The position numbers were made by a program, and so were the translations under genes. Below, in pieces: positions 7,665 through 52,633 of a stretch of 64,000 bases of DNA; position 1 is the stretch's first letter; every line of letters starts with the position of its first letter. The notes under the pieces were generated by a model, which worked only from the letters and a program-made list of their open reading frames with translations, did not search any database and was not told the origin of the DNA. Source of the stretch: Escherichia phage KarlSchell_Bas89; sequence record PQ850613.1; one strand, written 5' to 3'.

Positions 7665-7700
7665 AAGCTGCCTTCGGGCGGCTTTTCTTGTTTTAAGACC
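7665..7700 (+). terminator. intrinsic terminator (GC stem, UUCG loop, U-tract)
   Basis: agctgcc-ttcg-ggcggct followed by tttcttgtttt. Confidence 0.6.
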
Positions 7701-7716
7701 TATACATGACCAAGTG

Positions 7717-7726
7717 TAATGTATAT
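7717..7726 (+). promoter_or_regulatory. recurrent promoter-like motif TAATGTATAT, 33 nt upstream of the 7759 gene
   Basis: Same 10-mer recurs upstream of other genes on both strands (24565, 34531, 34459 minus, 45655 minus). Confidence 0.4.
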
Positions 7727-7758: not shown

Positions 7759-8505
7759 ATGGCGATGCCAGACGTTCAGTACCCAATTAATACCTACGGA
7801 TGGCTTAAGAAGGCTGTGTCCCTCTGGGCTGACCGTGATGACCCTGAATTTGTTAATCAAATTCCAAACTTTATTAACTTTGCAGAAAAGGAAATCTATC
7901 GTAATTTACGTATTCCTCCTCTGGAAAAAGAAGTCTATTTAGATATTAAAGATGGTGTGGCTTTTATCCCACCAGATTACTTAGAAGCTCAGTGGATGAT
8001 GAGATCTAAAGATGGTTTAATCTTCCGTGTAACTTCTCTTGAAGAAGTGGATTGGCTTAAACGTAATAACTCAGTCAACCCTACTAATTGGAATCAGGGA
8101 GAAGTTGTCTTTGCTCGTTTGGGTAGTCGATTTATCTTCTATCCTGCAATTGAAGCAGATACTCCAGTTTACCCCGATGATGGCAGCCCTGAGATTCCAG
8201 CAGACAATGCGGTTATCCTCAGCTATTATGCTGACCCACCAGAATTTTGGGAAGACTCAGATACGAGTGCTATTCTTACTATAGCCCCAGAGCTTCTGTT
8301 ATATTTTGCTTTACGTCATGCTTCCTTGTTTGTTCAGGATGACAATGCAGTTCAGAAGTGGTCTGCTTTAGGTAAGGCTATTCTTGATGAAGTTGTTGAG
8401 CAGAGTAAGAAAGCAGAATACTCAGGTTCACCTTTAGTTATTCCTAACACGATTAGCCGTCTACATAGCTCTCGTGAAGTATATGGGATTCGTCGTTTTA
8501 GATAA
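7759..8505 (+). CDS. hypothetical virion protein (248 aa)
   Basis: RBS AGGAGG; located in the structural arm directly before the tail fiber genes. Confidence 0.4.
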   Translation: MAMPDVQYPINTYGWLKKAVSLWADRDDPEFVNQIPNFINFAEKEIYRNLRIPPLEKEVYLDIKDGVAFIPPDYLEAQWMMRSKDGLIFRVTSLEEVDWLKRNNSVNPTNWNQGEVVFARLGSRFIFYPAIEADTPVYPDDGSPEIPADNAVILSYYADPPEFWEDSDTSAILTIAPELLLYFALRHASLFVQDDNAVQKWSALGKAILDEVVEQSKKAEYSGSPLVIPNTISRLHSSREVYGIRRFR

Positions 8506-8514
8506 GGAGAGAAT

Positions 8515-11085
8515 ATGATCGTTTATAATAACCAAGCACCTTCGGCTGTTAACAACGTTGGTCAGTTTGGTGCAACAGAAGGCTCTATCGGAGCCTATAA
8601 ACAAGCTGCTGAATACGCAGCTGACTCTAAGTATTGGGCACTTTTAGCTGAGTCTAAATTTGGTACAGTTGATGACTTGATTGCTCAGGTTGAACTTCTG
8701 TATAAACAAGGTGTCCTGTTAAAAGAAGACATTGAAGATTTGAAACAAGACTTCATTGCACAAGATGCTCGTTTGATGAATCTTATTGCTCAAACTAACG
8801 CAGCTGTAGCTGATGCAAATAACGCAGTTGCTCTGATTAACCAGAAACTTGTAGAAGTTCAGCGCCAGTTGGATATTCTGTTGGGTATGACAGTCACCGT
8901 TACAACGCTTCCTCCGGGTTCTGAGGCCACTGGTTCATTTAACAACCAGACTGGTGAAATTAAACTTGGTATCCCTGAAGGGGAGAAAGGTGCAGATGGC
9001 TCTGTTACTGACCTATCTACTGCTCCTACTGGTACACCAGAGCTGGGAGATATAGGTTTCTATGTAGACAAAGATGATAACACTGTTCATAAAACCTCTC
9101 TTGAAGCTATTGCAAACCTGATCCCATCTGTTCGTTCTGTTTCTATTAACGATGGCCCTGCGCTTGATGGTGAAGTGGCTCTTACGATCAACAAAGGGAC
9201 AGTAGGTCTTGGGAACGTTTTGAACGTGGCTCAATATAGTCGACAAGAGATTAACGACAAGTTTGATAAAACAACTAAAACATACCAATCGAAAGCCGAA
9301 GCTGATTTAGATGCTCAATTTCGACAAGTGGGAGAGAAGGTTTTGGTGTGGGAAGCAACTAAATATGAATTCTATACTGTTGCAGCTAATAAGACACTCA
9401 CTCCAGTTAAAACGGAAGGCCGTATCCTGACTGTTAACTCTCGTGCCCCTGATTCAACAGGTAACATTGATATCACAATTCCAACAGGAAACCCCTCTTT
9501 GTATCTAGGTGAGATGGTGATGTTCCCTTATGACCCAGCTAAAACTGTTTCATATCCAGGAGTTCTTCCTGCGGATGGTCGTCTTGTTCCTAAAGCAAAC
9601 GCAGCAGACCTTGGACCCTCTTTAGTCAGTGGTCAATTGCCTGTAGTTTCTGAAACAGAGTGGCAAGCTGGTGCTCGTCAATATTTCTCTTGGGGTAAAT
9701 TGGCTGATGGTATTACTGATGCTGACTCTTCTAATTTCATTAACATAAGACTTCCTGATTGGACAGGTGGCGAGGCTATTCGCTCCCCTGACTCTGATAA
9801 AGATTCTCAATATGACGGCTCTGTACAAGCTCAGAAACCTTATGTTGTCACTGTAAATAATCAGGCTCCTGATGAGGTTACTGGTAATGTGAACATCTCC
9901 AGATCAATTTTAGGTGCTGCTTCTTCTGGGGCAAACTCTGACATTACATCTTTATCTGGACTCACAGCACCATTATCCATCTCTCAAGGCGGGACTGGAT
10001 CTACAACCGTAGACGGGATTCGTCATACTTTAAAAATAACCCCATTTACCAGTGAAAATAATCACGCATTTATCTTCTCCCCGAACCTGTTAAACAGGGT
10101 TGTATTAAGGGATGACGGATACTTTATCATACAAGAGAGAAGTGATACCTCATCTGATAGCTGGACACCTAATCCGGTGTCCATAGAAGCGGGTGGTACT
10201 GGAGCATCTACATCCAGTGGGGCACTTGCTAATCTCGGTTTAGGCCCTACAGCTACTCTCGACGTCATACCAGTTGCCAATGGTGGTACTGGAGCAACTG
10301 ATGCTGCTGGTGCTCGTTATAATTTAGGATTGGGAGGTGTTTCTACTCTTGATAACGTACCAATCGCCAGCGGTGGTACAGGTGCTGGGGATGCCGCTGG
10401 TGCCCGAAGCAACCTTGGAGCGCTGAGTAACACTCCAGCAAACACAGGTACAGGTGGTACTGGTGCGCGAGTCCAACATGCCACCGGAAGTGGCCTGTTT
10501 ACTTTAGACATGTTTAACTGCTACTGGTATATGCAGCCAGAGGATACTAACTTCTGGGTTGCCCACGGTGTGTCATATGCAGGATCTAGTGGCGAAGCCT
10601 CAGATTATGGTCGTATATCTTACGCAATAAAGATTGCAGACGGAACAACAAAATATGTCCATTGTCTTACAAACAAAAACACCATTACTGATACAGGCGG
10701 GTTTATCAAAGCGGCATCTCCGGTAGTTAACATTTATGCCAACGGTCAATATGAAACGAATGATGAATCTGAGGGGGTTAGTGTCATCCGGCAGGGTATT
10801 GGTGAATATCTGATTACCGGTTGCCTCGGTCTTAACTCTGATGCAAGATGGGGTGGGGTGGATGGGGGGTTTGAAATCCCAACAGATCGCAATAAGCAGC
10901 CTAGGATTTGGCTGGATTATGAGGTTAAAGAAGATGGTTCTATTTTAGTTAAAACCTATCACAGAACTCACTCAACCTCTCCAGTTTTTGCTAGAAATGA
11001 GATAGAAGGTTTTTCTGATGGGGACCCTATTGATATTCCAAGTGATGCTTTTATCTCAGTTCGTGTAGAGATGCCAGCTAAATAA
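8515..11085 (+). CDS. tail fiber protein with Gly-rich fiber repeats
   Basis: 856 aa; N-terminal coiled coil; three repeats of 'GGTGA.DAAGAR.NLGL' around 10190-10440. Confidence 0.55.
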   Translation: MIVYNNQAPSAVNNVGQFGATEGSIGAYKQAAEYAADSKYWALLAESKFGTVDDLIAQVELLYKQGVLLKEDIEDLKQDFIAQDARLMNLIAQTNAAVADANNAVALINQKLVEVQRQLDILLGMTVTVTTLPPGSEATGSFNNQTGEIKLGIPEGEKGADGSVTDLSTAPTGTPELGDIGFYVDKDDNTVHKTSLEAIANLIPSVRSVSINDGPALDGEVALTINKGTVGLGNVLNVAQYSRQEINDKFDKTTKTYQSKAEADLDAQFRQVGEKVLVWEATKYEFYTVAANKTLTPVKTEGRILTVNSRAPDSTGNIDITIPTGNPSLYLGEMVMFPYDPAKTVSYPGVLPADGRLVPKANAADLGPSLVSGQLPVVSETEWQAGARQYFSWGKLADGITDADSSNFINIRLPDWTGGEAIRSPDSDKDSQYDGSVQAQKPYVVTVNNQAPDEVTGNVNISRSILGAASSGANSDITSLSGLTAPLSISQGGTGSTTVDGIRHTLKITPFTSENNHAFIFSPNLLNRVVLRDDGYFIIQERSDTSSDSWTPNPVSIEAGGTGASTSSGALANLGLGPTATLDVIPVANGGTGATDAAGARYNLGLGGVSTLDNVPIASGGTGAGDAAGARSNLGALSNTPANTGTGGTGARVQHATGSGLFTLDMFNCYWYMQPEDTNFWVAHGVSYAGSSGEASDYGRISYAIKIADGTTKYVHCLTNKNTITDTGGFIKAASPVVNIYANGQYETNDESEGVSVIRQGIGEYLITGCLGLNSDARWGGVDGGFEIPTDRNKQPRIWLDYEVKEDGSILVKTYHRTHSTSPVFARNEIEGFSDGDPIDIPSDAFISVRVEMPAK

Positions 11086-22879: not shown

Positions 22880-24544
22880 ATGCAACAAACTTCATATGCG
22901 TACCTCCGTAGTCGAGACCCACGCAATCAGATTTATGGTGTAAATCAGGGAGGGGTGCAAGCCTCTCCTTATATTCCTCGTCCTGCTTACCCACAAGCAG
23001 ATATGTCTGTTTATACCCGTCCTAGTATGGCTCCTGCTGGATTAGCTGGGCTGGTTTCTCAGGCTAATGAAGATCAAGAAGCAATGCTTGGTCCAAACAA
23101 ACAAGTTGTTCAGGGTGCTAACATCCAACCTGATATCCCCAACGAAACTCCTGTAGCAGCCTCTCAGTCAGCTTCTCCGTTTGTTAACGATGAAAGCATG
23201 GTTGCTGCTGGCCTTTCTCCAGAAACTGCTTCTCAAGAGTTCTCAGACCCTCTACCGGTAAGTGCTCCTCCTAAACCGTTGGAACCTACTGATACAGAGT
23301 TTACTCAAGACCAAGTTAAACAGGCACAACAGGTTATGTCAACCCTTTCTTCCGGTTTACCTGAAGCTGAAGGTATGGCAGGTGCTTCTCGTAGCGCTGA
23401 CCAAGAACGTGTTAACAAAGATTTAATGGAAGTGGCTAAGGCTAAGAACCCGATGGAAGAGTGGGGTAAGTTACAGAAACAACCTTTCTATCAGAACTCT
23501 AGCTTCTATACAGGTTTGATGGGTGTAGGTCTTTCTATTATGTCAGGTAAGTCTCCTATTGAAGCTTTCCAGATTGGCTCTGGTATGGCTGCACAGGATG
23601 AAACTAAGAATCAGCTTGAAGCTAACCGTGAATCTCTGATTGAACAGGGTTATTCTCCAGACTCAGTTGCTGCTGCAATTGCTACTGGTGATCCTTCTGC
23701 TCTGAAGATGCGTCAGATTAGCCCTCAAGAGAAACTTGCTTTGTCTGCTATTGAAGATGAAAGAGCTAACCGTGAATGGGACAGACGCCAACAGATTAGT
23801 GAACAGTCTATGAGTCGTAGGATGGATGCAACTCGCCAAGCTGCTGAACAACGTGTACAAGAACAGTTTGCTCGTCAGAAAGAGTTGATTGGGTATCGTG
23901 ATCAAGTAAAAGCTGATCGTGCTGAGAAAGCTGCTCAGAGTTTTAATTTTAATCCGAAAGAAGTTCGTCTTGCTCAGAACACAGCTGAAGGTACAGTTGC
24001 TAAGCAGTGGGCAGAGAAAGGTGGTCTGTTTAACCAGTCTCATAAAGACTTGGATTTGGCAGATCAGGCAGTTAAAGATAAAGACTATCAGACAGCTCGT
24101 TCTGCTTACATGCAGGCTATCATGAACTCCGCAAGGGCTGAAATCGGTGCTACTCGTTCTCTGACCGAAGAAGACTTACGTCACTTTGCAGAAGACCCAT
24201 CAATCTTTGTTAAGGTTGGTAATACTTGGTCTCTGAAAGGTGGGTATCGTCCTACTGATGCTGCTCTTGCTTATGCTCGTAAACAGGCAACCGTTGGTGC
24301 TACTTCAGCGATGAAGGGTGTTAAGGATGCTAAGAAAGCAACCATCGAAGCTTACGTTGGTTCTGGTATGGATAAGAAACGTGCTACTGCACTTGTTAAC
24401 CGTGCTATACCTTCTGGTGGTTTCTATGACCCATTAGGTACATTTGAATCACAAGCTGAGGAAGAGGTTGGTGGTGCTGCTACTAATCCACGTCTGAATG
24501 GTGCTCTTTCAGCTTCTGAAGACACTAGCTGGTTTACTCAATAA
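22880..24544 (+). CDS. hypothetical virion protein; start trimmed to ATG 22880
   Basis: RBS TAGGAG before ATG 22880; the track start at 22817 is TTG and overlaps the upstream gene. Confidence 0.4.
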   Translation: MQQTSYAYLRSRDPRNQIYGVNQGGVQASPYIPRPAYPQADMSVYTRPSMAPAGLAGLVSQANEDQEAMLGPNKQVVQGANIQPDIPNETPVAASQSASPFVNDESMVAAGLSPETASQEFSDPLPVSAPPKPLEPTDTEFTQDQVKQAQQVMSTLSSGLPEAEGMAGASRSADQERVNKDLMEVAKAKNPMEEWGKLQKQPFYQNSSFYTGLMGVGLSIMSGKSPIEAFQIGSGMAAQDETKNQLEANRESLIEQGYSPDSVAAAIATGDPSALKMRQISPQEKLALSAIEDERANREWDRRQQISEQSMSRRMDATRQAAEQRVQEQFARQKELIGYRDQVKADRAEKAAQSFNFNPKEVRLAQNTAEGTVAKQWAEKGGLFNQSHKDLDLADQAVKDKDYQTARSAYMQAIMNSARAEIGATRSLTEEDLRHFAEDPSIFVKVGNTWSLKGGYRPTDAALAYARKQATVGATSAMKGVKDAKKATIEAYVGSGMDKKRATALVNRAIPSGGFYDPLGTFESQAEEEVGGAATNPRLNGALSASEDTSWFTQ

Positions 24545-24564
24545 GACCTAAGTCCTGCCTTCTA

Positions 24565-24574
24565 TAATGTATAT
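24565..24574 (+). promoter_or_regulatory. promoter-like motif TAATGTATAT, 36 nt upstream of the 24610 gene
   Basis: Identical 10-mer to 7717 and 34531. Confidence 0.4.
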
Positions 24575-24609: not shown

Positions 24610-27600
24610 ATGGCTAACATTAAATCTTGGGAAGAAGCATCGAAAAGCCCCAAGTATATGAATGCAACTCCTGAGCAACAGGCTCAGTTGAGAGAGCAAT
24701 ACAAAGCGGCAGGTGGTACAATCCCTGAAGATAAGCCAGTACAACCACAACAAGAAGAGCGTGGCTTAGTTGGTGAGTTCGCTCAGGGCGTATCTAATGC
24801 TATCGAATCTGGTGGAGCTAATATTGCAGCTAGTACCGCTCGTGGTTTAGGTGGTCTGGTTGAAATGGGTGAGAACGTTCTCGGTTCCCAAACAAGCTAT
24901 GGTAAAAGAATTCAAGATAACGCAAAACAAGTATTAGAAAAGCGTATGGCTGGTATCGAGGATGGCTTTGGTAAGACTGCTGGGCAGTATGCTGGAGTGG
25001 CTGCTGATATCGGTTTGACAGTTGCTAACCCTGCTTTGGCTGCTGGTGTTATTGCGGGACGTGAAGCAGGGCGTGCTTATGCAGACCAGACTCCAGAAGA
25101 GGGAGAAGATAAGTCAGTGTTAGATGCTGCTCTTGTTGGTGGTGCTAACTTTGCAGCTCAGAAGATTCTTCCGGGTTTCACAGGAACAGCTGAGTCTACT
25201 TTAGGTCGTATTGGTCAGAGTGCTGCTTCTAACGCAGTGGCTGGTGCTAAGGGTGGTGCTCTCGTAGGTGCTGCTGAAGCTCAGAATAAGTATGGTGATG
25301 ACACTACACTTGCCAATGTACTAGAAGGTGCAATTGATGAAGGTGTTGCTGGTGCTGCTTACGGCGGTGCTATTGGTGGTGTTCATGGTGCGATCAGTCG
25401 TCCTAGTCCTCAAGTATTTGATAAGACTCCTGAGAACGTTAAGACTGATATCTCCGCTGAAGATGAAGCGATTCGTAATGCTAAAAATGCTGATGAACTC
25501 CGTGAAGCTTATTCTCAAGCTGATACTGCTAACACAGCTTCCGCTCTTAACCTGCTAGACCAGAATGATTTCCGTATTACAGATGCCGTGGCTATGGATT
25601 CTCCTGCTGCTCAACGTATCCTTAATACAGACCAGACTCGTGCTGAGAAAGCTGCTTCCTCTCTTACAGAGCGTTCTAACATCCCAGGTCTCAATCCTCT
25701 TGCTTCTCCAAGTAAGGTTAAGGGTAAAGCTTTTGCAGATAACGAACATAACCAGAAGCAAGCTGTAGCAATGAAAGATGCAATGGCTGACTACACTAAA
25801 GACAACACCAAGGCTCTTAATGATGTTCTTGATAATCTAGACAGAGAGTTGAATGACCTTCGTGTCCGTGGTGACTTTACTGGTAGCGCTATTGACATTA
25901 AGAATCAGACTCGTAATGATCGTGATTTCATTGATGCTTACAAGAACTTCTACACTGAAGCAAACAGATTCAAAGCTCGTGATGGTGAAGACTTTAATAA
26001 CTTTGTAGAGAAAGCTACCGAGCTACAGAAACTTGCTGATAATGTTTCTCCAGAGATGAAGAAAGCTATTGGTGGTTTGAAGAAACTGAAAGGTATGCCT
26101 GAAGGTTTCAACCCTATCCAAGATGCCTTTACTCTGAATAACACAGCTAAATTAATGAGTAACCAAGACCGTGGTTGGACAACCCTGACAGATGATGGTT
26201 TCCGTGAAGCCTCTTCTCCAAGTTTTGTTATGAACACCCTTGGTGCTGCTAAGTATGCTCTGAACCGCTTCTCTTCAGAGAGGGCTAGGTCTCAACGTGC
26301 TCGACAGCAGGATTCAAACAGTGAAGCAATTCGCTCTTTGGCTCGTGGTGATTTAGAGGTTGCTCGTGCTCGAAGTGCAGCAGCAAAAGCACGCGAAGAA
26401 ATGGAAGCCGAACCGGTTGTTGATGACGTTCAATTTAAGACGCAAGCTGATGACCAAAATCAGGCTGGTTCTGAACCCTCTTCTCCAGCTACTGTGACGG
26501 AAGATTTCTCTCCTTCTCCAGCTCCTTTAACTGCTCGTGATTTGGTTGCTCAAAGACGTGCTATTCGACAGGCGGAACAACGCCGTGCAGAGGAGGAAGC
26601 ACAAGCTGCTCAGAATGCTCCAGTTGAACCAGAAGCTCCAGCAGAAACTTTGCCTACGCGTAACCCTCTTGAGGAACGTAGAGTGCAAGAAGCTGAGATG
26701 GAACAACAGCGTGCAGCAGAAGAGGCTGCTAAAGCTCCTGAGACGTCCGTAGAAGAGCCTACAGCTAAAGCTGAGCCGTTACCTGCTCGTGCTCCTAAAG
26801 CTCCTAAGGAAGCTGCTCCTGAGGTTAAACCGGCTACTGGTGTAGAACGTCTTGCTGCTATGTCAACAGCTGCTCGTCAGGCTACTAAAAACCGTGCTGA
26901 ACGTTTTGCTCGTTCTTTGTATACTGCTGGTGCTAAAGCCAAAGCTACTGCGGAAAACTTCTTGGCTTATAAAGGAGACCCGAAAGAGCTGATGCGTCGT
27001 ATCCGTCAGGAAGACCAAGCGAACAATGCTGCTCGTCATGAAGAGATGGCTCGTAACCAACTAGCTTCTCAGCAAGGTATTGCAGCTGCTAAATCTAACC
27101 GAGTTCGTTCTGCATTCTCCGATTGGGTTAAAGAGCGTGGATTACCTTCTGAAATCGCCTCTAAAGCCCTACGTGCTGAAGAACGTGGATTGGATGGTAA
27201 CGTATCAAGCCTAGACTCTTTGAAGCGCAGAGCTGAGCGTATGTATCAGAAAGAGCGTGATGATGAGTTTGATAGGCTGTATCGTGAAGCTCTGGAAGAA
27301 AACAAAGCTTTTGATAAGAAAGATGCACCTAAGCTGAAAGATCAGAAGGCTGAGTTCCAGTCAGAGATTGATTCTCTACTTGAGAACGAACCTCTCCGTC
27401 CTGCTCAGAAAGATGCAATGCGTAAGATGATGAGTGATTTTGTTGATGGGAAGTTTAAAGCGGCTGAGAAAGCTGGAAGGGAAGAAGCTTTAGAGGTTGG
27501 TCAAATGAAGGATTTGTGGGATGGGTTTATTAATACCTACAATCGTGAAGTTGGCATGTTCAATAAAGCTAACAAGAACTCTCAGTATGAGGCAGCAGCT

Positions 27601-29031
27601 AAACATCTACAGGCTCGTGAAGAGCGTCTTACCTCTTTACGTAACAGAGCAGAAGCTCGTGCTCAAGCGAAAGCTACAGCAGAAGCTGAACGTCAGTCAC
27701 TCGAAGCTATTGCTGGTCAGAAGACTGAGATAGAGAAGATGTTTGATGAGTTACCTAAACCTGTCCGCGAGGCTCAGGAAAGCCGTACTCTGAAACAGCT
27801 TGCAGCTCACCACGATAAGAACTCCCCTGTTCCTCCAGAACGTTTCCGTAGTATTATCGAACGTATCCATAACGCAGAGTCCGACTACCTTGATCGTAAG
27901 CGTCGTCTCACTGATGCAGAGGAAGATGCTCGTGAAGCTAAGTGGAACAAGATGTATGAACAAGCAGAGGAGATGAACCGTAAATTCGATATAGATGCTC
28001 GCGTGTCCCGTGATAAGAGCCTCAAAGAAGCTCAGGAGCGACAGAATGATCTCATGGCAGTACAACGCCAACGTGATGACATTCACAGCCGTCTGGTGCG
28101 TTCTATCGAAGATAAGGGCATCCCTAAAGCTGATGCTGAAGCATTTGCTGGTTCTTATATGGATAACCGTTATGCTCTTCTTGAAAAACCTATGACCCCT
28201 ACCGAGCATCAGAATGCTCGTGCACGTATTGAGTCCGATGTAGAGAAGTTTGCTAAGAAGTATGAAAGCTTGTCTCCTATCGAGAAAGACGTGGTTAAGA
28301 TTACTGGTGATGTGGAAGGTAAACTGGATGGGTTGGATGCTGAGACTATGAAGGCAGTTGAGGAAGCTAGGAAGGTTGACTCTGATATTAAGAAACTTCA
28401 GGATGAAGAGTTGGAAATGGAGAAAGTCCGTTCAGCTTTACCTGATGATGAAAAGTCTCAGGCAAATTCCGACATTCTGGAAAGCATTAAAAAGCAAGAA
28501 GATGAGTTTGCAGGAAAGGTTGAGAAGGCATTCTTGGAAGGCAAGGACTTGAAGGAATTGGCTAGTGTTGCAGAGGTTCTGGATAGGGTTCATGGTGCTG
28601 ACAAGGCTGGGAACAACCGTAGATTTGTTCGTGCTCTACAGACTGCTGCTGACAACAAGAATAAGTATGGTGATAATCCGGTAGCTTGGTTTAGTGCTGA
28701 TGATTACTCTGCTATTGCTAAACTTGGTGCTGCATCAGCGGGCGGTAACAAATCGAGAGCGTTGGAGAAGATCTTTGGTTCTACAGCAGATCAAGCTAAG
28801 GCTAAGCTTTTGGGGAGAGATGATGTAGCGAAGATTAGACGTGTGATTGAAGCGAATCCTGAAGTCAAGATTCCTTCTTACAAGACTACTACTCGTCAAG
28901 AGTATTTACAGTTCTTGGAGAAGTATAATGATGAAGGAGTGTTGAAAGTCAAACGTGGTTCTCTGTCTGACAGATTAGAAAGGAATAAGCGTCAAGCTAA
29001 ACTCCGTGTTAGAGTTCGCTCGAAAGAGTAA
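24610..29031 (+). CDS. large coiled-coil virion protein (1473 aa); internal/ejection protein or tape-measure-like
   Basis: Gly/Ala-rich hydrophobic N-terminal segments followed by >1000 aa of A/E/K/R-rich helix; no RNAP motifs. Confidence 0.45.
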   Translation: MANIKSWEEASKSPKYMNATPEQQAQLREQYKAAGGTIPEDKPVQPQQEERGLVGEFAQGVSNAIESGGANIAASTARGLGGLVEMGENVLGSQTSYGKRIQDNAKQVLEKRMAGIEDGFGKTAGQYAGVAADIGLTVANPALAAGVIAGREAGRAYADQTPEEGEDKSVLDAALVGGANFAAQKILPGFTGTAESTLGRIGQSAASNAVAGAKGGALVGAAEAQNKYGDDTTLANVLEGAIDEGVAGAAYGGAIGGVHGAISRPSPQVFDKTPENVKTDISAEDEAIRNAKNADELREAYSQADTANTASALNLLDQNDFRITDAVAMDSPAAQRILNTDQTRAEKAASSLTERSNIPGLNPLASPSKVKGKAFADNEHNQKQAVAMKDAMADYTKDNTKALNDVLDNLDRELNDLRVRGDFTGSAIDIKNQTRNDRDFIDAYKNFYTEANRFKARDGEDFNNFVEKATELQKLADNVSPEMKKAIGGLKKLKGMPEGFNPIQDAFTLNNTAKLMSNQDRGWTTLTDDGFREASSPSFVMNTLGAAKYALNRFSSERARSQRARQQDSNSEAIRSLARGDLEVARARSAAAKAREEMEAEPVVDDVQFKTQADDQNQAGSEPSSPATVTEDFSPSPAPLTARDLVAQRRAIRQAEQRRAEEEAQAAQNAPVEPEAPAETLPTRNPLEERRVQEAEMEQQRAAEEAAKAPETSVEEPTAKAEPLPARAPKAPKEAAPEVKPATGVERLAAMSTAARQATKNRAERFARSLYTAGAKAKATAENFLAYKGDPKELMRRIRQEDQANNAARHEEMARNQLASQQGIAAAKSNRVRSAFSDWVKERGLPSEIASKALRAEERGLDGNVSSLDSLKRRAERMYQKERDDEFDRLYREALEENKAFDKKDAPKLKDQKAEFQSEIDSLLENEPLRPAQKDAMRKMMSDFVDGKFKAAEKAGREEALEVGQMKDLWDGFINTYNREVGMFNKANKNSQYEAAAKHLQAREERLTSLRNRAEARAQAKATAEAERQSLEAIAGQKTEIEKMFDELPKPVREAQESRTLKQLAAHHDKNSPVPPERFRSIIERIHNAESDYLDRKRRLTDAEEDAREAKWNKMYEQAEEMNRKFDIDARVSRDKSLKEAQERQNDLMAVQRQRDDIHSRLVRSIEDKGIPKADAEAFAGSYMDNRYALLEKPMTPTEHQNARARIESDVEKFAKKYESLSPIEKDVVKITGDVEGKLDGLDAETMKAVEEARKVDSDIKKLQDEELEMEKVRSALPDDEKSQANSDILESIKKQEDEFAGKVEKAFLEGKDLKELASVAEVLDRVHGADKAGNNRRFVRALQTAADNKNKYGDNPVAWFSADDYSAIAKLGAASAGGNKSRALEKIFGSTADQAKAKLLGRDDVAKIRRVIEANPEVKIPSYKTTTRQEYLQFLEKYNDEGVLKVKRGSLSDRLERNKRQAKLRVRVRSKE

Positions 29032-32231: not shown

Positions 32232-32873
32232 TTAAGACCCTTGGAATTCTTCCTTGTCGAAGTGCTTCTCTACCACATACTCATACAGATCTTTATACTC
32301 TGCATAACGACGATAGAATGTCCCATGTGAGATGCCTAATTCTTTCTGAATGGAATCGTGAGGGATACCTAAGAAGAGCATTGAGAACATGCTTGCAAGC
32401 TTCTGTGTATCCATTGTATCACTCAAATCTTGGAAGAAGTAGAAGATACGAGACTCCATGAAAGGGTCCCCAACTGAGTCATGCTTATTAACTGCATATT
32501 CCAGAGGGCCTTCTGAGTAAATGTCAGGGTTGTTAAACATATCTGCTTCTGGAATAGCATAGATACGTCGATCACCAACTGTCTGTCGATTGGAACGGAT
32601 AGACCAGATGATATTCTTCACACGATAAGTCATGTGCTCAATCTCTACTTCACCTTCTAGTAGAAGTTCTTCTTGCTTGGAGTAGATGAAACGCCAAACA
32701 TTAAGCAACACCTCTTGAGCTACATCCTCTGCTTCATGATAGTCACGAATGTCGTACATAAAGAATTTGTGAACCACTTTCCAGTTCACCTTATAGAACT
32801 CATCGAAGGTTGGGAAGTATTTGATTGGAATACCGTGAATACGATACCGAGTAGGTGTTGTTTTCTTAGCCAC
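32232..32873 (-). CDS. phage-encoded sigma-factor-like protein (ECF/sigma-70 regions 2 and 4)
   Basis: Region-2-like '[14 protein letters not shown]' and region-4 HTH-like '[23 protein letters not shown]'; GTG start with AAGGA RBS. Confidence 0.5.
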
Positions 32874-32903
32874 AAGTTATCCTTAACTTTGTCGGTTTTA
32901 ATT

Positions 32904-33110
32904 TTATACACTGATCAAGTAAATAGCTGTTTCAGGGTTTGGTGTGTTTTGTTGTGGTGTGCCGGAGATACGAATCCACTCATCATTTTCTGGTTCGTAA
33001 TACAACCAAGCATCTGTGAATTTGAAAGTTCTTCCAAACACTTTATTATCATGTTCCCAAATTACGTGAACATTCCTAGTATCAGGTAGAACTGATTGCG
33101 CTCTAATCAT
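32904..33110 (-). CDS. hypothetical protein
   Basis: 68-aa ORF in coding orientation. Confidence 0.3.
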   Translation of the reverse strand: MIRAQSVLPDTRNVHVIWEHDNKVFGRTFKFTDAWLYYEPENDEWIRISGTPQQNTPNPETAIYLISV

Positions 33111-33367: not shown

Positions 33368-33626
33368 AGTGCATCTCTTTGTAAACTGTCTCAGTGTTCT
33401 TCTTCCAGTCTGATAGACCATTGAGAACTCTCATAGCAACATCATCAGCTGCTTTGTTTCTCTCTATCTCTAATTCTTGCTGATGTTTCTCTTTGTCCAG
33501 ATTATTACTATCTGTTTGATATTCGTTAAACTTCATACCACCAAAGAATACAAGAGCTGAAAAGATGATGAACCCTAAGTTATCACTTAACGTGTTTTGC
33601 ATATTATCTCCAACGAAAAAAGCCAC
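33252..33626 (-). CDS. candidate i-spanin (Rz-like)
   Basis: N-terminal TMD 'GFIIFSALVFFGG' followed by a charged coiled-coil periplasmic domain. Confidence 0.4.
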   Translation of the reverse strand: MAFFVGDNMQNTLSDNLGFIIFSALVFFGGMKFNEYQTDSNNLDKEKHQQELEIERNKAADDVAMRVLNGLSDWKKNTETVYKEMHYEKTKPVFYNVCASDEYVKLFNERQQQAVNAITNKSKN

Positions 33627-33640
33627 CCGAAGGTGGCTAA
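33611..33640 (-). terminator. intrinsic terminator on the minus strand
   Basis: Minus-strand agccacc-ttcg-ggtggc followed by tttttt. Confidence 0.6.
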
Positions 33641-33660: not shown

Positions 33661-34401
33661 TTAGAATGGAGATTCGTCTTCTTCAAAAGTAGACTCAGGC
33701 TCACGATCAATAGTAGGGATAGAAGCAACCGGCTCTTTCTGCTCGTTCTCAGAAGCCTTAGTGACTTCACGACCAGCGAGAGGAATGTTCTTAGCGTCAT
33801 TAGCTTGGGTAAGCAGGTTACGCTGGAATGGGAAGATTACCTGATAAGCAGCTACGTTATCATCTGTTTCAGCATACGGTTCGAAGAAGACCAGAGGACT
33901 GCGAGCAGCAGCAACAGCTTCACGATACTTGGTAGGAATCGGAGTAATCTGTTTGATAGAGTTCTTAACTTCACCAGCTTTGTTGGTGTAAGAGTTGATT
34001 AGAACGTTTACAGGCTGACCTAACAGCATTTCTTTAAACCAAGCCAAATCACCTTTCAGTGCTTGGATGCTAGGGTCAACCATCTTAATTAGGTTGAGAA
34101 TACCAGAGTTCTTAGCTCGTGGGTTTACATCGAAGCTCTTAAACTGACATGCAGGGCGCGGGTCAAGAGCATTGCCTTCAGAGTCCTTACCGGTTGCATC
34201 AACACCAATCAGCTCAAACGCCAAGTCCATACGGAAAGCTGGGTTCTTAGGAGTAACTGCTTTAGTCTTAGGGTCAACCCAAGGGTCACGATTGTGAACA
34301 CCAAGACCAACAACACGAACGATACGAGCTTCGTACTCACCATCAGGGATTACGTCGTAGTTGGATTTACGGGAAACGGACATAGTTGGGATAGAAGACA
34401 T
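33661..34401 (-). CDS. single-stranded DNA-binding protein (T7 gp2.5-like)
   Basis: Acidic C-terminal tail ending in aromatic F ('EEDESPF'); size; placement in the T7-like replication set. Confidence 0.5.
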   Translation of the reverse strand: MSSIPTMSVSRKSNYDVIPDGEYEARIVRVVGLGVHNRDPWVDPKTKAVTPKNPAFRMDLAFELIGVDATGKDSEGNALDPRPACQFKSFDVNPRAKNSGILNLIKMVDPSIQALKGDLAWFKEMLLGQPVNVLINSYTNKAGEVKNSIKQITPIPTKYREAVAAARSPLVFFEPYAETDDNVAAYQVIFPFQRNLLTQANDAKNIPLAGREVTKASENEQKEPVASIPTIDREPESTFEEDESPF

Positions 34402-34458
34402 ATTTTAATTTCCTTATTTAATTTAAGATTGTTGCTCACTTTGAGCGGTTATGTATAG

Positions 34459-34467
34459 TATACATTA
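34459..34467 (-). promoter_or_regulatory. promoter-like motif TAATGTATA on the minus strand, ~58 nt upstream of the SSB gene
   Basis: Plus-strand tatacatta; 9 of 10 match to the recurrent 10-mer. Confidence 0.4.
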
Positions 34468-34530
34468 CACCTATACCGATAAGGGTGCTATATAGTATAA
34501 GCAGTAGTGGTAGTAGATATTGACTACTAG

Positions 34531-34540
34531 TAATGTATAT
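34531..34540 (+). promoter_or_regulatory. promoter-like motif TAATGTATAT on the plus strand inside a minus-strand gene arm
   Basis: Exact 10-mer, preceded by TTGACT at 34520; no plus-strand CDS lies downstream. Confidence 0.3.
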
Positions 34541-34946
34541 ATTGTATAGATGATAATTCTATTGCAGGCTTGTATATTGGGCAATTCTCAGAATCCCTTG
34601 CAAGTACCGAAGGGCAGGAGACACCTGCGAGATAAAAATAGAGAATTAAGGAATCCTTGATTTAGGTTGTAGGGACTCCTAGGGACTTTGATTCTCTATT
34701 TAAAAGAAATATTAATTACTTACTACCTAAATAGTTAACTAACTTACTTAAAACCTTTTCAATAAGAATTGCTAAAAGGATAATTCCTAAGAAAGCTAAT
34801 AAGAGAAAGGCATAAGTTACCATTCCATCATTCCTTTTAATCTAGATTCTTCTACTATTCGCTGATAGAGTAAGTTAGACTCAGCTTGATCTTTTAACAT
34901 TTTACTGTATTGATCTCTGAGACTATCTTTATAAACAACAGGTGGT

Positions 34947-35462: not shown

Positions 35463-35945
35463 TTAGATAGTTAATTTGTGATCTTCCTCCGCTCTGTTTC
35501 TGACAGAGACGGCTTCCTCTAGGGTTGAGAAAGTTCCTAGGTATTTAGTTTTACCTTTAATGTGTATGTTGGCTATGTACTTCCCTCTTGAATTGAGGTA
35601 CACACCCTTAGCCCCTGAGGTGTTGTTAGAATTCAAACCCTTATTCCAAGAGTTATTCTCGTTGTTAACCTCTCTAAGGTTGCCTATGGAATCATTGGAA
35701 GGATTTCGATCAATGTGGTCTATTTGATCTTTAGGTAAAACGCCATTAGCAAAATACCAAATGATATGGTATCTGTAAATAGCTCTTCCTTTCAATCGAA
35801 TAAACACTCTTCCATCCTTTTTTGAAGTTCCTGCCTCATCACCTCGCCTGCATTTTGTTCCGTTGTGAATTCTCCAGAACACTTTCCCAGATGATAAATC
35901 ACAAACAAAGAACTCATCCAGAAGATCTTCTATCATATCATGCAA
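35463..35945 (-). CDS. HNH homing endonuclease with AP2-like domain
   Basis: 'YRYHIIWYFANGVLPKDQIDHIDRNPSNDSIGNLR' plus 'KGVYLNSRGKYIANIHIKGKTKYLGTFSTLEEA'. Confidence 0.8.
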   Translation of the reverse strand: MHDMIEDLLDEFFVCDLSSGKVFWRIHNGTKCRRGDEAGTSKKDGRVFIRLKGRAIYRYHIIWYFANGVLPKDQIDHIDRNPSNDSIGNLREVNNENNSWNKGLNSNNTSGAKGVYLNSRGKYIANIHIKGKTKYLGTFSTLEEAVSVRNRAEEDHKLTI

Positions 35946-36467: not shown

Positions 36468-36646
36468 CACCTTGATAAGACCCTTCCCCAATCTTTGATG
36501 TAACAGCGACCATCAATCCACTTGGTCTCTGATTTAAATTCTTGAGAGATTCTTGTTTCACAGTCTTCTTTACTGTAGTCACCAAGCATCTCCATAACAC
36601 AAATAAACAGAGCTATACCAATGGCCCACAAGATTAACTTCTTCAT
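36468..36646 (-). CDS. small membrane protein (59 aa, below the track cutoff)
   Basis: ATGA start-stop overlap with the upstream HAD-like gene; N-terminal TMD 'LILWAIGIALFICVM'. Confidence 0.3.
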
Positions 36647-37035
36647 CGAATCACCAAAGGCTCATCAGAGTACACAGGAGCGGCTATTTCTACAGGAGGT
36701 GCTGCTTTAAGGTCATTAAGTCTTACACCCTTTAGCATCCCATCTAGGTGGTCCATTTTAGGGATTCCAACAGGGAAGTCATCAATCCAGATATCTACAA
36801 AGAAACCTAGTTGACGACATACATCATCCTTCTGTACACCATTACAAAAGATAACAGGAATCTGTAAGGTCTCTGCATCATAGAGAATGTCTACGTTGTC
36901 ATACCCGTTAGGCTCTGAGAATCGGAAAGTTACAAATCGAACATCGTGCCCATTTGCTTTCATTAAACCAATCACGTCTCTCCACAAGCGTCTATCCGCT
37001 GTGTATGTATCATCATAATCTAAACCAATGTTCAT
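36643..37035 (-). CDS. HAD-like phosphatase / nucleotidase
   Basis: N-terminal DxDxT motif 'LDYDDT'. Confidence 0.45.
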   Translation of the reverse strand: MNIGLDYDDTYTADRRLWRDVIGLMKANGHDVRFVTFRFSEPNGYDNVDILYDAETLQIPVIFCNGVQKDDVCRQLGFFVDIWIDDFPVGIPKMDHLDGMLKGVRLNDLKAAPPVEIAAPVYSDEPLVIR

Positions 37036-41166: not shown

Positions 41167-41661
41167 TTAACTAGAGCTTAAAGCGTGTCTGATAGCTGTA
41201 TGGCTTACACCAAACATCCTACCTAAAGCTCTTGTTCCAAACTGAGCAGAACCTTTGACATAAAGGTTTTTAACTCTTTTAACATCCTCTGTATTAAGTT
41301 TCATTCTAGGGTTTATGTTCCTGTGATGGCCTACATTAAGACCTGTATCAAAAGAATGTTGAACATTCTCAGAAGCATCTGCCCACTCTAGATTCTCAAT
41401 ACGATTATCACTTTTTACACCATTCTTATGATTTATCTGAGGTTTGTTTTCAGGGTTAGGTATGAAAAAGGTTGCTATCAACCTATGAGCTTTCCATGAC
41501 CTCCCTTCAAAATAAACCCTAATATAACCTTTAGTGTCTAAGTGGCCAGCCTCTTTACCCGGATGGCTCTTATTCCACTTAAAACCTTTTGAAGATGACT
41601 CTGTGTAAAACAGACGACCAGAATCTCTATCATAAGAGAGGTAGTCGGATATAGGAATCAC
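41167..41661 (-). CDS. HNH homing endonuclease
   Basis: 'HRLIATFFIPNPENKPQINHKNGVKSDNRIENLEWADASEN'. Confidence 0.8.
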   Translation of the reverse strand: MIPISDYLSYDRDSGRLFYTESSSKGFKWNKSHPGKEAGHLDTKGYIRVYFEGRSWKAHRLIATFFIPNPENKPQINHKNGVKSDNRIENLEWADASENVQHSFDTGLNVGHHRNINPRMKLNTEDVKRVKNLYVKGSAQFGTRALGRMFGVSHTAIRHALSSS

Positions 41662-41969
41662 TGACTCAGCGCCCCCTTCCTTCCACCATTTGATTTTCCA
41701 GCTCGATCTCCACTTTTGCCGCCAGCTGAACGATTGCTGCTGACTGTCTCAACACGTAAATTGCTTGACGCATTAGAGCCTCCTGATTTAATGGCTCGTT
41801 TGTGTCCGACATCTTTACCTTTGAGTGCAGATTTTCCAACGCGTTTCTCAACGATGCGACGTGCACGGTGGCGCTGAGCATCTCCGCTCTTACTTCCAAC
41901 TCCCGTTTCACCTCTTGCGATGGCTGTACGTCTTTCTTGTGCATAATCTCTTTTAGCCTTATCAGTCAT
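41658..41969 (-). CDS. hypothetical basic protein (frame choice uncertain)
   Basis: K/R/G/S-rich; overlaps an alternative-frame ORF 41666-41944 on the same strand. Confidence 0.3.
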   Translation of the reverse strand: MTDKAKRDYAQERRTAIARGETGVGSKSGDAQRHRARRIVEKRVGKSALKGKDVGHKRAIKSGGSNASSNLRVETVSSNRSAGGKSGDRAGKSNGGRKGALSQ

Positions 41970-42027
41970 TTACAACTCCTTAATATATCAGTGTACACTA
42001 AGGAGTATACATTATGAGAGGGTAGCT

Positions 42028-42768
42028 TTAGTTGCCACCCTTCTCCATAGCTTTAACGATTGCTTTACAGAAACCAGAACGAACAATGTCATCCGAGTCG
42101 CCATCAACAATATCAGCGAACTCGTACAGATCATGCTCATCAATGAACTCGGTAGCCCAAGTAAGACCACTCTCCCGACCTTTCATATCGTGCTGGTTAG
42201 TGTCACCCATGCAGAACAGCTGGGATGTTTCACCCAAGCGGGTCATGATAGAGAATGCTTCATCTTTGGTTGTATTCTGGAACTCATCCACAATAACAAT
42301 GGCATCATTGAAAGAGCGACCACGGAGGTATTCCAGAGGCACAAACTCAATATTCCCATTACCAAGCTGGCATTCATAAAAACCTTTACCATATCGCTGA
42401 GTAATCACATCAACAATAGGCATCAGGTATGGTTCGAACTTATCACGAAGCCCACCCGGAAGTAACCCAAGAGAATTACCCATGCCAACAGAGGGTCGGC
42501 TAATGATAATCTTTTGAATCTTACCACTCTTCAGTGCATCAATGACAGTAGAGGTGATGACGAATGTCTTACCACAGCCCGCAGGAGCGTCTGTGAACAC
42601 CACTTGTTTAGTCTTGATAGCATTGAGTAGCTCAGATTGAAACTGATTCTGAGGGACCACTGGCTTCGCTAAAACAACCTCTTCATACTCACGCTTACCT
42701 TTCTTGGTGACTAAGGCTTCACGACGTAAATCTTTACGAGATTCTCTACGGGACTGTCTACGGCTCAT
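42028..42768 (-). CDS. phoH: PhoH-like ATPase
   Basis: Walker A 'DAPAGCGKT' and Walker B 'IVIVDEFQN'. Confidence 0.8.
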   Translation of the reverse strand: MSRRQSRRESRKDLRREALVTKKGKREYEEVVLAKPVVPQNQFQSELLNAIKTKQVVFTDAPAGCGKTFVITSTVIDALKSGKIQKIIISRPSVGMGNSLGLLPGGLRDKFEPYLMPIVDVITQRYGKGFYECQLGNGNIEFVPLEYLRGRSFNDAIVIVDEFQNTTKDEAFSIMTRLGETSQLFCMGDTNQHDMKGRESGLTWATEFIDEHDLYEFADIVDGDSDDIVRSGFCKAIVKAMEKGGN

Positions 42769-44742: not shown

Positions 44743-45310
44743 TGGAGTGTGACATGTTACTTTTAACGAAGTAGCAATACTTGCCTAACCCTTCGTTGAT
44801 TTCTTGGAGCATGCTCTGGTCAACTGGATACTCGCTCAAACATCCATCGAACTCATCCATTTTGTCAATCATGCACATTAAAGACATGCACATATCAGAG
44901 AGCATACCATCCATATCTAGGTCTGCATTTCCTTCAGAGAACCAAGAGTGTGACAAGTAGTTAGAAGCAGTTGCATCCACCTTAATACAGTGGAAACGCA
45001 TACGTTCAGCTATCCGATCACCTGTCTCACGAGCATAATCTTCCAGCTCATCAAACATTCCATGAACACCCTGAAACCCTGCACCAGATACGTTCCAGTG
45101 ATAATTCTTAGCTTTGATATGCAAGAGTTCTAAGTTAGCTTGAATACCGCATAGAATGTGTTCTAGGCTGTTTCCACTAATCATCCCTTGCATACGCTCT
45201 AAACGGGAGATAGAAGAGTCTGTTTCACGTAATACATCACGGAAAGAAGTCTCTTTTGTTAGAGTTGGTAAGTCGAAAACATTGTGATTAGACATTAGGA
45301 TTTTCTCCAT
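44726..45310 (-). CDS. Dps/ferritin-like protein
   Basis: 'HWNVSGAGFQGVHGMFDELEDYARETGDRIAERM' matches the Dps ferroxidase-site signature. Confidence 0.6.
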   Translation of the reverse strand: MEKILMSNHNVFDLPTLTKETSFRDVLRETDSSISRLERMQGMISGNSLEHILCGIQANLELLHIKAKNYHWNVSGAGFQGVHGMFDELEDYARETGDRIAERMRFHCIKVDATASNYLSHSWFSEGNADLDMDGMLSDMCMSLMCMIDKMDEFDGCLSEYPVDQSMLQEINEGLGKYCYFVKSNMSHSSDVSY

Positions 45311-45617
45311 CAAGTTCTACTGAGTTCGCAACATTGCGTTCCAGATTTGAGATTACCTGTTGGGTGATAACGATGCAGTTCTGTGGGTCAACTGACTTAG
45401 AACGTCCCATCTCAGGGTCATACACCTTAACACGTTTTGCTGTAGAACCAGTTACCTGTAACACCTTGAGAAGATAACCCTGATTCCCGATAGACCATGC
45501 AACAACATCACGATTCTTGATGAATCGACCAAGCATATCACGATGGTAGAACTGCTGCATAACCTTTGATTTATTAATCTCTTCGGCTGGCGGAGCCACT
45601 TTACTCAAATCTAACAT
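45288..45617 (-). CDS. hypothetical protein
   Basis: 109-aa ORF; promoter-like motif upstream. Confidence 0.35.
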   Translation of the reverse strand: MLDLSKVAPPAEEINKSKVMQQFYHRDMLGRFIKNRDVVAWSIGNQGYLLKVLQVTGSTAKRVKVYDPEMGRSKSVDPQNCIVITQQVISNLERNVANSVELDGENPNV

Positions 45618-45654: not shown

Positions 45655-45664
45655 TATATACATT
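45655..45664 (-). promoter_or_regulatory. promoter-like motif AAATGTATATA on the minus strand, ~38 nt upstream of the 45617 gene
   Basis: Plus-strand tatatacattt; 9 of 10 match to TAATGTATAT. Confidence 0.35.
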
Positions 45665-45689
45665 TGAGAGTGATCATATCTACTACCAA

Positions 45690-52211: not shown

Positions 52212-52394
52212 CTATGCTGTGAAGTTTTTGATTACACCGCAAATAACATCTGTTTCAAACGTACCCACCAGAACATCGTCTCGGTAGAAGTTAATCGCCT
52301 TACCATCTCGGTTAAAGTGATCTGCTTCAATGAGCATAGATTGTACCTGACCATCTGGAGTGGAGGTTCGAAAGATGACGTTATACTGACTCAT
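52212..52394 (-). CDS. hypothetical protein
   Basis: 60-aa ORF inside the cluster. Confidence 0.3.
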   Translation of the reverse strand: MSQYNVIFRTSTPDGQVQSMLIEADHFNRDGKAINFYRDDVLVGTFETDVICGVIKNFTA

Positions 52395-52633
52395 AAAGAA
52401 GTTACTCCCTTATCTTCTTGGGCGATAGAGATGATACGACTCACACACTGCATTGAGTACTCATCACCACGCTTTAGGAACGTTACGATAGCAGAGAATT
52501 GATTACCAATCATCCGCTCATTTGTAATACCGAACTCTTTGCAGAGTTCTTTCAGTTTGCTACGAGAACCAATAATCAGAGGTTCTTTTTCTTCAGTCAT
52601 TCCACGACTAATCAAATCTTCAATAGACAACAT
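52391..52633 (-). CDS. hypothetical protein
   Basis: 80-aa ORF, stop-start coupled. Confidence 0.3.
   Translation of the reverse strand: MLSIEDLISRGMTEEKEPLIIGSRSKLKELCKEFGITNERMIGNQFSAIVTFLKRGDEYSMQCVSRIISIAQEDKGVTSL

Follow-up and report, generated by a model that had tools for sequence, protein, structure and literature searches.

Genome context and features of the locus

The minus strand of the window, i.e. of the whole stretch of 64,000 nucleotides of phage DNA that was analysed, contains at positions 32232-32873 a gene whose GTG start codon is preceded by AAGGA and whose product is the ortholog of gp36, the sigma factor of phage phiEco32. An ortholog of phiEco32 gp79 is encoded further along on the same strand, and six sites with a short promoter-like motif are distributed over the window, five of them ahead of genes and one in the spacer between the orthologs of genes 40 and 41. 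The coordinates of all these features are collected in Table 1.

Table 1. Position of the sigma factor gene, its partner gene and the predicted promoters and non-coding elements in the window. Bits refer to the two-block weight matrix; identities are those of the encoded protein to its phiEco32 counterpart.
Feature	Position	Strand	Description	Bits	Gene downstream
Sigma factor gene, phiEco32 gp36 ortholog	32232-32873	-	213 aa, GTG start		
gp79 ortholog	52391-52633	-	80 aa; PDB chain 9m7y_G, E=4.2e-36, residues 1-79		
Predicted late promoter, P13 ortholog	7694-7725	+	TAAGAC-N17-TAATGTATA	22.3	gp13 ortholog, 7759-8505 (80%)
Predicted late promoter, P26 ortholog	24542-24573	+	TAAGAC-N17-TAATGTATA	22.3	gp26 ortholog, 24610-29031 (81%)
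Predicted middle promoter, P40 ortholog	34459-34490	-	TAGCAC-N17-TAATGTATA	22.0	gp40 ortholog, 33661-34401 (84%)
Predicted middle promoter, P58 ortholog	42006-42037	-	TGGCAA-N17-TAATGTATA	17.6	gp58 ortholog, 41658-41969 (86%)
Predicted middle promoter, P68 ortholog	45657-45688	-	TGGTAG-N17-AAATGTATA	20.1	gp68 ortholog, 45288-45617 (94%)
Upstream blocks of the window promoters	7694-7699, 24542-24547, 34485-34490, 42032-42037, 45683-45688				
Additional promoter-like site	34508-34539	+	TGGTAG-N17-TAATGTATA; on par with the best known sites	22.1	
Candidate non-coding transcript	34546-34705	+	Putative, downstream of the site at 34508-34539		
5' hairpin	34546-34562	+	Begins at the predicted +1		
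Almost invariant 3' part	34611-34705	+	About 95 nt, conserved across three genera		
Long hairpin	34636-34701	+	Within the 3' part of about 95 nt		

By its sequence, the window is assigned to a phiEco32-like coliphage of the subfamily Gordonclarkvirinae. A 5-kb stretch around the sigma gene shows 97.8% nucleotide identity to Escherichia phage EP335, 95.7% to KBNP1711 and approximately 80-84% to the phiEco32-type (Kuravirus) phages. EP335, the nearest record, is classified within the Gordonclarkvirinae in the genus Nieuwekanaalvirus. The ATG at position 1 of the window opens an open reading frame (ORF) of 513 aa for the large subunit of the terminase, which is the ortholog of phiEco32 gene 7 and has exactly the same length. 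Likewise, as in phiEco32, the plus strand carries the genes of the first 29 kb or so and the minus strand those beyond. In the GenBank entries MG748548 (EP335) and KF981730 (KBNP1711), both the sigma gene and the gp40 ortholog are labelled merely 'hypothetical protein', while a name for the sigma factor is given in the RefSeq version of KBNP1711.

The gene at 32232-32873 and its partner

An earlier note on this DNA, made from the sequence alone, had described segments in the encoded protein that resemble sigma region 2 and the helix-turn-helix (HTH) of region 4. This is a fair description, and the corresponding Pfam matches are weak: Sigma70_r2 was found with E=0.0031 and 17.7 bits, below the curated cut-off of 24, and covers residues 34-62 only, HTH_23 matched residues 169-193 very weakly (E=0.13), and neither Sigma70_r4 nor r4_2 was matched in the Pfam search of this ORF. 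Since the matches are sub-threshold or marginal, the description is accurate, yet on its own it would be insufficient to establish a sigma factor. In PHROG, the protein matches family 1740, 'RNA polymerase sigma factor', with E=8.7e-46, and the PDB chain 9m7y_F, which is phiEco32 gp36, aligns over residues 1-212 with E=4.5e-121 and approximately 83% identity. In tblastn searches, phiEco32 gene 36 was matched at 83.5% identity and the EP335 copy at 99.5%, and the protein was present in 98 phage records, all of them from Escherichia or Shigella phages. The solved phiEco32 ortholog has a sigma-2-like fold and a compact sigma-4-like fold as determined by cryo-EM (Xu et al. 2025, PMC12276001), and the sub-threshold Pfam match taken together with the solved sigma-2-like fold therefore suggests that the kinship with the sigma-70 family is structural and distant. 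In agreement with this, Lavysh et al. described gp36 as being without sequence homology to region 4 (PMC8948821). The 'ECF' label that gp36 carries in GenBank has no support at the sequence level.

The residues named by Xu et al. 2025 (PMC12276001) as contacts were checked by pairwise alignment of the two proteins. Those that touch the clamp helices (D44, E47, E49, D50, E54) and those that read the -10 element (E79, H80, Y83, R84, W90, S91, S94, N95) are identical in the sigma factor of the window, 13/13 of them at the same positions as in gp36. Identical as well, with their position shifted by +1, are the -35 residues Y186 and R187, the residues M138, I142, F166, L167 and F204 that contact the flap-tip helix, and the gp79-contacting residues F146, M164, L167 and I169; the shift in the C-terminal numbering is due to a one-residue insertion in the linker. 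It is mostly in this linker that the two proteins have diverged, as identity to gp36 is 68% in the linker, 84% in the N-terminal domain and 89% in the C-terminal domain.

The partner protein is likewise encoded in the window (Table 1), and the published contact residues of gp79 are either the same in its ortholog or conservatively altered (L6 to I, V10 to I, W36 to F). In phiEco32, gp79 inhibits the sigma-70 holoenzyme and co-activates the gp36 holoenzyme, and it raised the activity of P26 and P68 three- to four-fold in vitro (PMC12276001).

The surroundings of the sigma gene are not entirely those of phiEco32. Gene 37 (macro domain), which lies upstream of the sigma gene in phiEco32, is absent from the window, and its place is taken by a 68-aa ORF at 32904-33110 on the minus strand, which has no aligned phiEco32 counterpart. 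Moreover, phiEco32 gene 36 is fronted by a visible sigma-70-type promoter, TGGACA-N18-TATAAT, and no equivalent of it could be recognised ahead of the sigma gene of the window in the region 32874-33110.

Distribution of the motif in the window

The earlier note had further proposed that a motif of 9-10 nt recurs upstream of genes on both strands, to be checked by a genome-wide scan. The outcome of such a scan depends on how the motif is written. The 10-mer TAATGTATAT occurs exactly at 7717, 24565 and 34531, always on the plus strand, and with one mismatch on the minus strand at 34458-34467 and 42005-42014 (both TAATGTATAC) and at 45656-45665 (AAATGTATAT). With one mismatch allowed, this 10-mer is not enriched in the window, as 8 copies were found versus 4.7 expected and 10 of 100 shuffled sequences reached 8; nor is the 7-mer AATGTAT, with 12 copies versus 10.1 expected. 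The exact 9-mer TAATGTATA, however, was found 5 times versus 0.45 expected, a number that was reached in none of the 100 shuffles. Its copies lie at 7717 (+), 24565 (+), 34459-34467 (-), 34531 (+) and 42006-42014 (-), and together with the variant AAATGTATA at 45657-45665 (-) there are six sites in total, all of which fall in the approximately 6% of the window that is non-coding by a crude gene map. Among the positions listed in the earlier note, those at 7717, 24565 and 34459 were recovered, while 45655 was slightly off (the copy is at 45656-45665); the promoter of gene 58 at 42006-42014 (-) had been missed and the extra copy at 34531 (+) was not listed.

The sites were also scored with a two-block weight matrix, for which only the six promoter sequences of phiEco32 were used. 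A matrix that included the 17 spacer positions turned out to be over-fitted to orthologous spacers and ranked the P58 site beneath random sites; therefore, the two-block matrix was used instead. With it, the six sites scored 17.6-22.3 bits and the next best site in the window 13.3 bits, while the best site per shuffled window (n=100) reached at most 19.1 bits, with a 95th percentile of 17.7. It is only the exact 9-mer and this two-block matrix that separate signal from noise. A further sequence, TAATGTGTAT at 35558 (+), was considered as a promoter. With a score of 10.0 bits, under the shuffle maxima, and a position within coding sequence, it was taken as a chance occurrence.

Promoters predicted ahead of five genes

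In phiEco32, six gp36-dependent promoters have been mapped experimentally, ahead of genes 6, 13, 26, 40, 58 and 68 (PMC8948821, PMC4331800, PMC4281155). Their consensus is tAATGTAtA, with AATGTA centred at -11.5 and the start of transcription 6-8 bp downstream (PMC8948821, PMC12276001). In the window, a site was found ahead of the orthologs of genes 13, 26, 40, 58 and 68, the region of gene 6 with its promoter P6 being outside the window. Each promoter region can be aligned with its phiEco32 counterpart (P13, P26, P40, P58 and P68) base by base. The motif's first T precedes the ATG start codon by 42, 45, 66, 45 and 48 nt, respectively, compared to 42, 47, 68, 45 and 48 nt in phiEco32, so that each distance is within 2 nt of its counterpart. 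The 9-mers of phiEco32 are located at 9101 (+), 26014 (+), 36632 (-), 42937 (-) and 46862 (-), the last one being AAATGTATA, and P6 has TAATGTAGA at 1677 (+). Four of the five gene-proximal sites of the window have the exact TAATGTATA and one has AAATGTATA, the same as their phiEco32 counterparts. P68, to which the latter belongs, is the promoter used in the cryo-EM structure (PMC12276001).

Some of these sites have neighbouring elements. A terminator-like hairpin is present at 7665-7684, just 5' of the P13-type promoter. Behind the gp40 ortholog, there is a strong terminator-like hairpin at 33621-33638 on the minus strand, AGCCACCTTCGGGTGGCT followed by a T-run. The gp40 ortholog, bounded by this hairpin and its own gp36-type promoter, makes up a unit of a single gene. 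Its product of 246 aa ends with an acidic tail (...EEDESPF), which we take to resemble the C-terminal tails of single-stranded DNA-binding proteins. The -10 element of P40 is one half of a near-perfect palindrome, TTATGTATA-G-TATACATTA, at 34449-34467, which is also found in phiEco32 at 36622-36640.

A second block, T-R-R-N-A at -38 to -34, is common to all copies of the gp36-type promoter. The hexamer that contains it stands exactly 17 nt 5' of the motif in each of the five window promoters (Table 1), that of the P58-type site, TGGCAA, being weaker (2.2 bits). In phiEco32, the hexamers differ at P40 (TAGTAC) and P58 (TAGCAG), and P6 has TGGGAG. T(-38) and A(-34) do not vary, and position -37 is a purine throughout, over 11 aligned promoter sequences; since these include non-independent orthologous pairs, they effectively represent six promoters and the extra site. 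The block fits the contacts seen by cryo-EM on P68, where R187 reaches G(-37) at N7 and Y186 reaches the T that faces A(-34), and mutating bases at -37/-34 abolished activity (PMC12276001). Papers before 2025 had termed the gp36 promoters single-element (PMC8948821). The proposal of the motif as a promoter element is supported, but the element is not strictly a single one, since the upstream block belongs to it.

Predicted mode of action and alternative readings

The gene at 32232-32873 on the minus strand almost certainly encodes a gp36-type sigma factor, with the five gene-proximal TAATGTATA-type sites as its middle and late promoters. The homology of the protein, the conservation of its contact residues, the enrichment of the motif and the orthologous positions of the promoters were observed here directly, while binding to RNA polymerase (RNAP), starts at 6-8 nt downstream of the motif and the timing of expression are expected by analogy with the approximately 83% identical phiEco32 ortholog. 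That the motif may be the element read by the phage sigma factor, as the earlier note had suggested, is supported by the five sites ahead of the same genes as in phiEco32. The precedent it named, that phiEco32-like phages encode their own sigma factor with a similar consensus, also holds, given the likeness of the protein to gp36 and the published consensus. In phiEco32, experiments and cryo-EM have established that gp36 directs the E. coli RNAP to middle and late promoters of the tAATGTAtA type (PMC8948821, PMC12276001).

If the window phage behaves as phiEco32 does, its sigma factor would take the place of sigma-70 on the core of the host RNAP. The N-terminal sigma-2-like domain, seated on the clamp helices, would read A(-14)A(-13)T(-12)G(-11) and open the DNA from -11, and the C-terminal sigma-4-like domain, on the flap-tip helix, would touch -37 and -34 of a sharply bent duplex. 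The gp79 ortholog would enter the RNA exit channel and displace region 4 of sigma-70, and then dock on the phage sigma factor's C-terminal domain and clamp it. As a result, host and early transcription would be turned off and middle and late transcription increased, with the late structural genes probably driven from 7759 (gp13 ortholog) and 24610 (gp26 ortholog), and the middle ones from 34401 (gp40 ortholog), 41969 (gp58 ortholog) and 45617 (gp68 ortholog).

Two other readings of the motif sites were weighed. The motif is AT-rich and includes TATA, and the SU10 genome paper reported sigma-70-like promoters with a poor -35 at the positions of middle promoters and suggested a dual recognition, in which these may also be read by the sigma-70 holoenzyme (PMC4281155). 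It is nevertheless very improbable that the sites represent normal sigma-70 promoters of the host, or -10 element variants, and are not read by the phage protein. A scan with the sigma-70 consensus returned no promoter where the P13 site lies, and on the minus strand no hit coincided with the P40 motif. At -11 there is an invariant G, which is contacted by E79 and H80 of gp36 (PMC12276001) and foreign to TATAAT, and the -38 to -34 block with its fixed 17-nt spacing agrees with the gp36 contacts and not with TTGACA. Moreover, the gp36 holoenzyme of phiEco32 uses the six promoters in vitro and gp79 blocks transcription by sigma-70 (PMC8948821, PMC12276001). The motif might alternatively be the operator of another DNA-binding protein of the phage, such as a repressor or a replication protein, instead of a promoter. 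The palindrome that encloses the P40 motif would fit an operator, as would the perfect 10-nt inverted repeat, 61 nt apart, that the P40 copy forms with the plus-strand copy. We consider this extremely unlikely, because the other four sites are non-palindromic, the five sites are always oriented with the downstream gene and gp36 itself has been seen on the motif sequence by cryo-EM (PMC12276001).

The reading as a gp36-type sigma factor with its own promoters places the window next to the gp36/gp79 system of phiEco32 (Xu et al. 2025, NAR, PDB 9m7y and 9m7z; Pavlova et al. 2012, J Mol Biol 416:389, as cited in later papers). The window has in common with it the sigma factor, gp79, the promoter core with the T-R-R-N-A block, the positions of the promoters and the contact residues. 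In contrast, the window phage belongs to a different genus (the EP335/KBNP1711 lineage), its sigma linker has diverged, and both gene 37 and a visible sigma-70-type promoter ahead of the sigma gene are missing. For KBNP1711, the same six promoter sequences had already been predicted, namely TAATGTAgA, four times TAATGTATA, and aAATGTATA (Lavysh et al. 2022, Viruses 14:555, Table S3, PMC8948821). Salmonella phage 7-11 is a distant relative, whose gp47 is likewise a phage sigma factor acting on the host RNAP with promoters at similar genome positions (PMC8948821). However, gp47 is only about 15% identical to gp36, phage 7-11 has neither a gp79 homolog nor a middle class of genes, and its late promoters, GTAAtg-N16-aCTA, are clearly bipartite (PMC8948821), while the motif of the window is of the phiEco32 type. 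A likeness to AsiA/MotA of T4 has also been drawn (PMC12276001), as in both cases a small protein removes or remodels region 4 of sigma-70 and a second protein provides a new promoter specificity, which leads to a rapid switch from early to middle transcription. T4 differs in that it keeps sigma-70 and adds an activator, whereas in the phiEco32 type sigma-70 is replaced, and there is no sequence relationship between the two.

The sigma factor and its promoter system were thus already published and have been re-derived here from the raw sequence. The interpretation is correct but known, since the phiEco32 promoters have been mapped and six are listed for KBNP1711 (Table S3). Taken by itself, this main finding matters little, because the switch is known genetically, biochemically and structurally and has been predicted for a phage with 95.7% identity. 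Its practical worth lies in annotation, with a function for a gene that is still a 'hypothetical protein' in the GenBank entries of EP335 and KBNP1711 and with five promoters precisely placed.

A reverse-facing copy of the motif and the conserved stretch behind it

While five of the sites lie upstream of genes, the plus-strand copy at 34531 is upstream of no gene. The site to which it belongs (Table 1) lies in a spacer of 314 nt that separates the gene 40 and gene 41 orthologs. There it stands with its back to P40, from which it diverges, and is aimed against the surrounding genes of the minus strand. The same site is present in phiEco32 at 36704 (+), and the exact two-block pattern was found in 17 out of 17 fetched loci that hold the region. 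When 11 phages from three genera were aligned, neither the two blocks nor the distance between them varied, while the sequence of the spacer did. The site is absent from the six published promoters (PMC8948821 with its Table S3, PMC4331800; Pavlova et al. 2012 as reported by the papers that cite it), and Table S3, which gives promoters of KBNP1711 only ahead of genes, does not include the plus-strand copy in the spacer between genes 40 and 41 (PMC8948821). A literature search found neither an antisense or non-coding RNA nor a mapping of start sites in phiEco32 or Kuravirus.

With AATGTA at -14 to -9, the predicted start of this site is A34546, which is the first base of a hairpin, ATAGA...TCTAT. 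In seven distinct sequences of this 5' hairpin, 97.6% of the cells are paired, versus 29-52% in slid controls; two pairs are altered on both sides (UA/GC and CG/UA/AU) and one alternates between G-C and G-U. The middle part of the stretch exists in two versions, type A in the window, phiEco32 and SU7, and type B in ECBP2, MN05 and ES17. The 3' part, with two direct TAGGGACT repeats 10 nt apart, is almost invariant. In the bin 34601-34700, identity to phiEco32 is 99%, compared to 69-93% in the neighbouring 100-nt bins, and the best-conserved non-coding block within the 3.8 kb compared with phiEco32 is the one after the plus-strand site. The few differences among relatives are located in predicted loops or yield a G-U pair on the plus strand. 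The stretch 34546-34705 has stop codons in all frames, and the only ATG near the start, a putative one at 34551, reads CTG in phiEco32 and is missing from the other relatives.

No credible match was obtained in an Rfam search of 34300-34900, nor any match of 34546-34715 in 5,426 E. coli genomes by blastn, and the stretch 34546-34705 had no match outside the phiEco32-like phage group. Scanning IMG/VR with an invariant 18-mer gave five loci only, one of them a metagenome contig, and revealed no wider diversity. Folding z-scores of the whole region are unremarkable, at about -1.6 on both strands; therefore, the structural case is built on the covariation of the 5' hairpin and the placement of the substitutions rather than on energy.

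We speculate that gp36 has a seventh promoter, so far undescribed, at the plus-strand site, from which a non-coding RNA antisense to the strand of the middle genes would be made. To this we give an even chance, given the lack of a terminator on the plus strand, a U-run on the minus strand and the ordinary folding of the region. The alternative is that the copy is not a working promoter but a by-product of the P40 region and that the block downstream serves the minus strand, which appears to us a serious possibility of a little less than even probability. The site might be, for example, a second place of binding for RNAP with gp36, where the DNA is bent, read-through from upstream is blocked or the holoenzyme is buffered. 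Between gene 41 and P40, the block could act in termination or processing, as the long hairpin, when read on the minus strand (34701-34636), has UUUUUAU after it. It is in line with this that neither an intrinsic terminator nor a gene was found on the plus strand downstream of the site and that published work names only six promoters (PMC8948821, PMC4331800). On the other hand, the hairpin at the exact predicted +1 has two compensatory pairs and stays paired through G-U, which corresponds to C-A mismatches on the minus strand, and an A-to-G change in XT32 gives a G-U pair in the long hairpin on the plus strand only (pair 105-147). The fold of the plus strand is also more stable than that of the minus strand (-42.6 versus -35.2 kcal/mol), and approximately 95 invariant bases are more than a terminator would need.

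If the site is indeed a promoter, the predicted plus-strand RNA may be a small or antisense RNA of the phage, made in the middle and late phases, or a primer transcript of a replication origin. The primary origin of T7 consists of phage-specific promoters followed by an AT-rich region, and it is this analogy that suggests an origin here, as the promoter-like site is followed by an AT-rich stretch after 34611-34705. The site also adjoins the gene for gp40, the SSB-like protein. The new lead of this analysis is therefore the conserved reverse-facing copy of the promoter together with the conserved non-coding block behind it, which could reveal a non-coding RNA or the replication origin of this group of phages.
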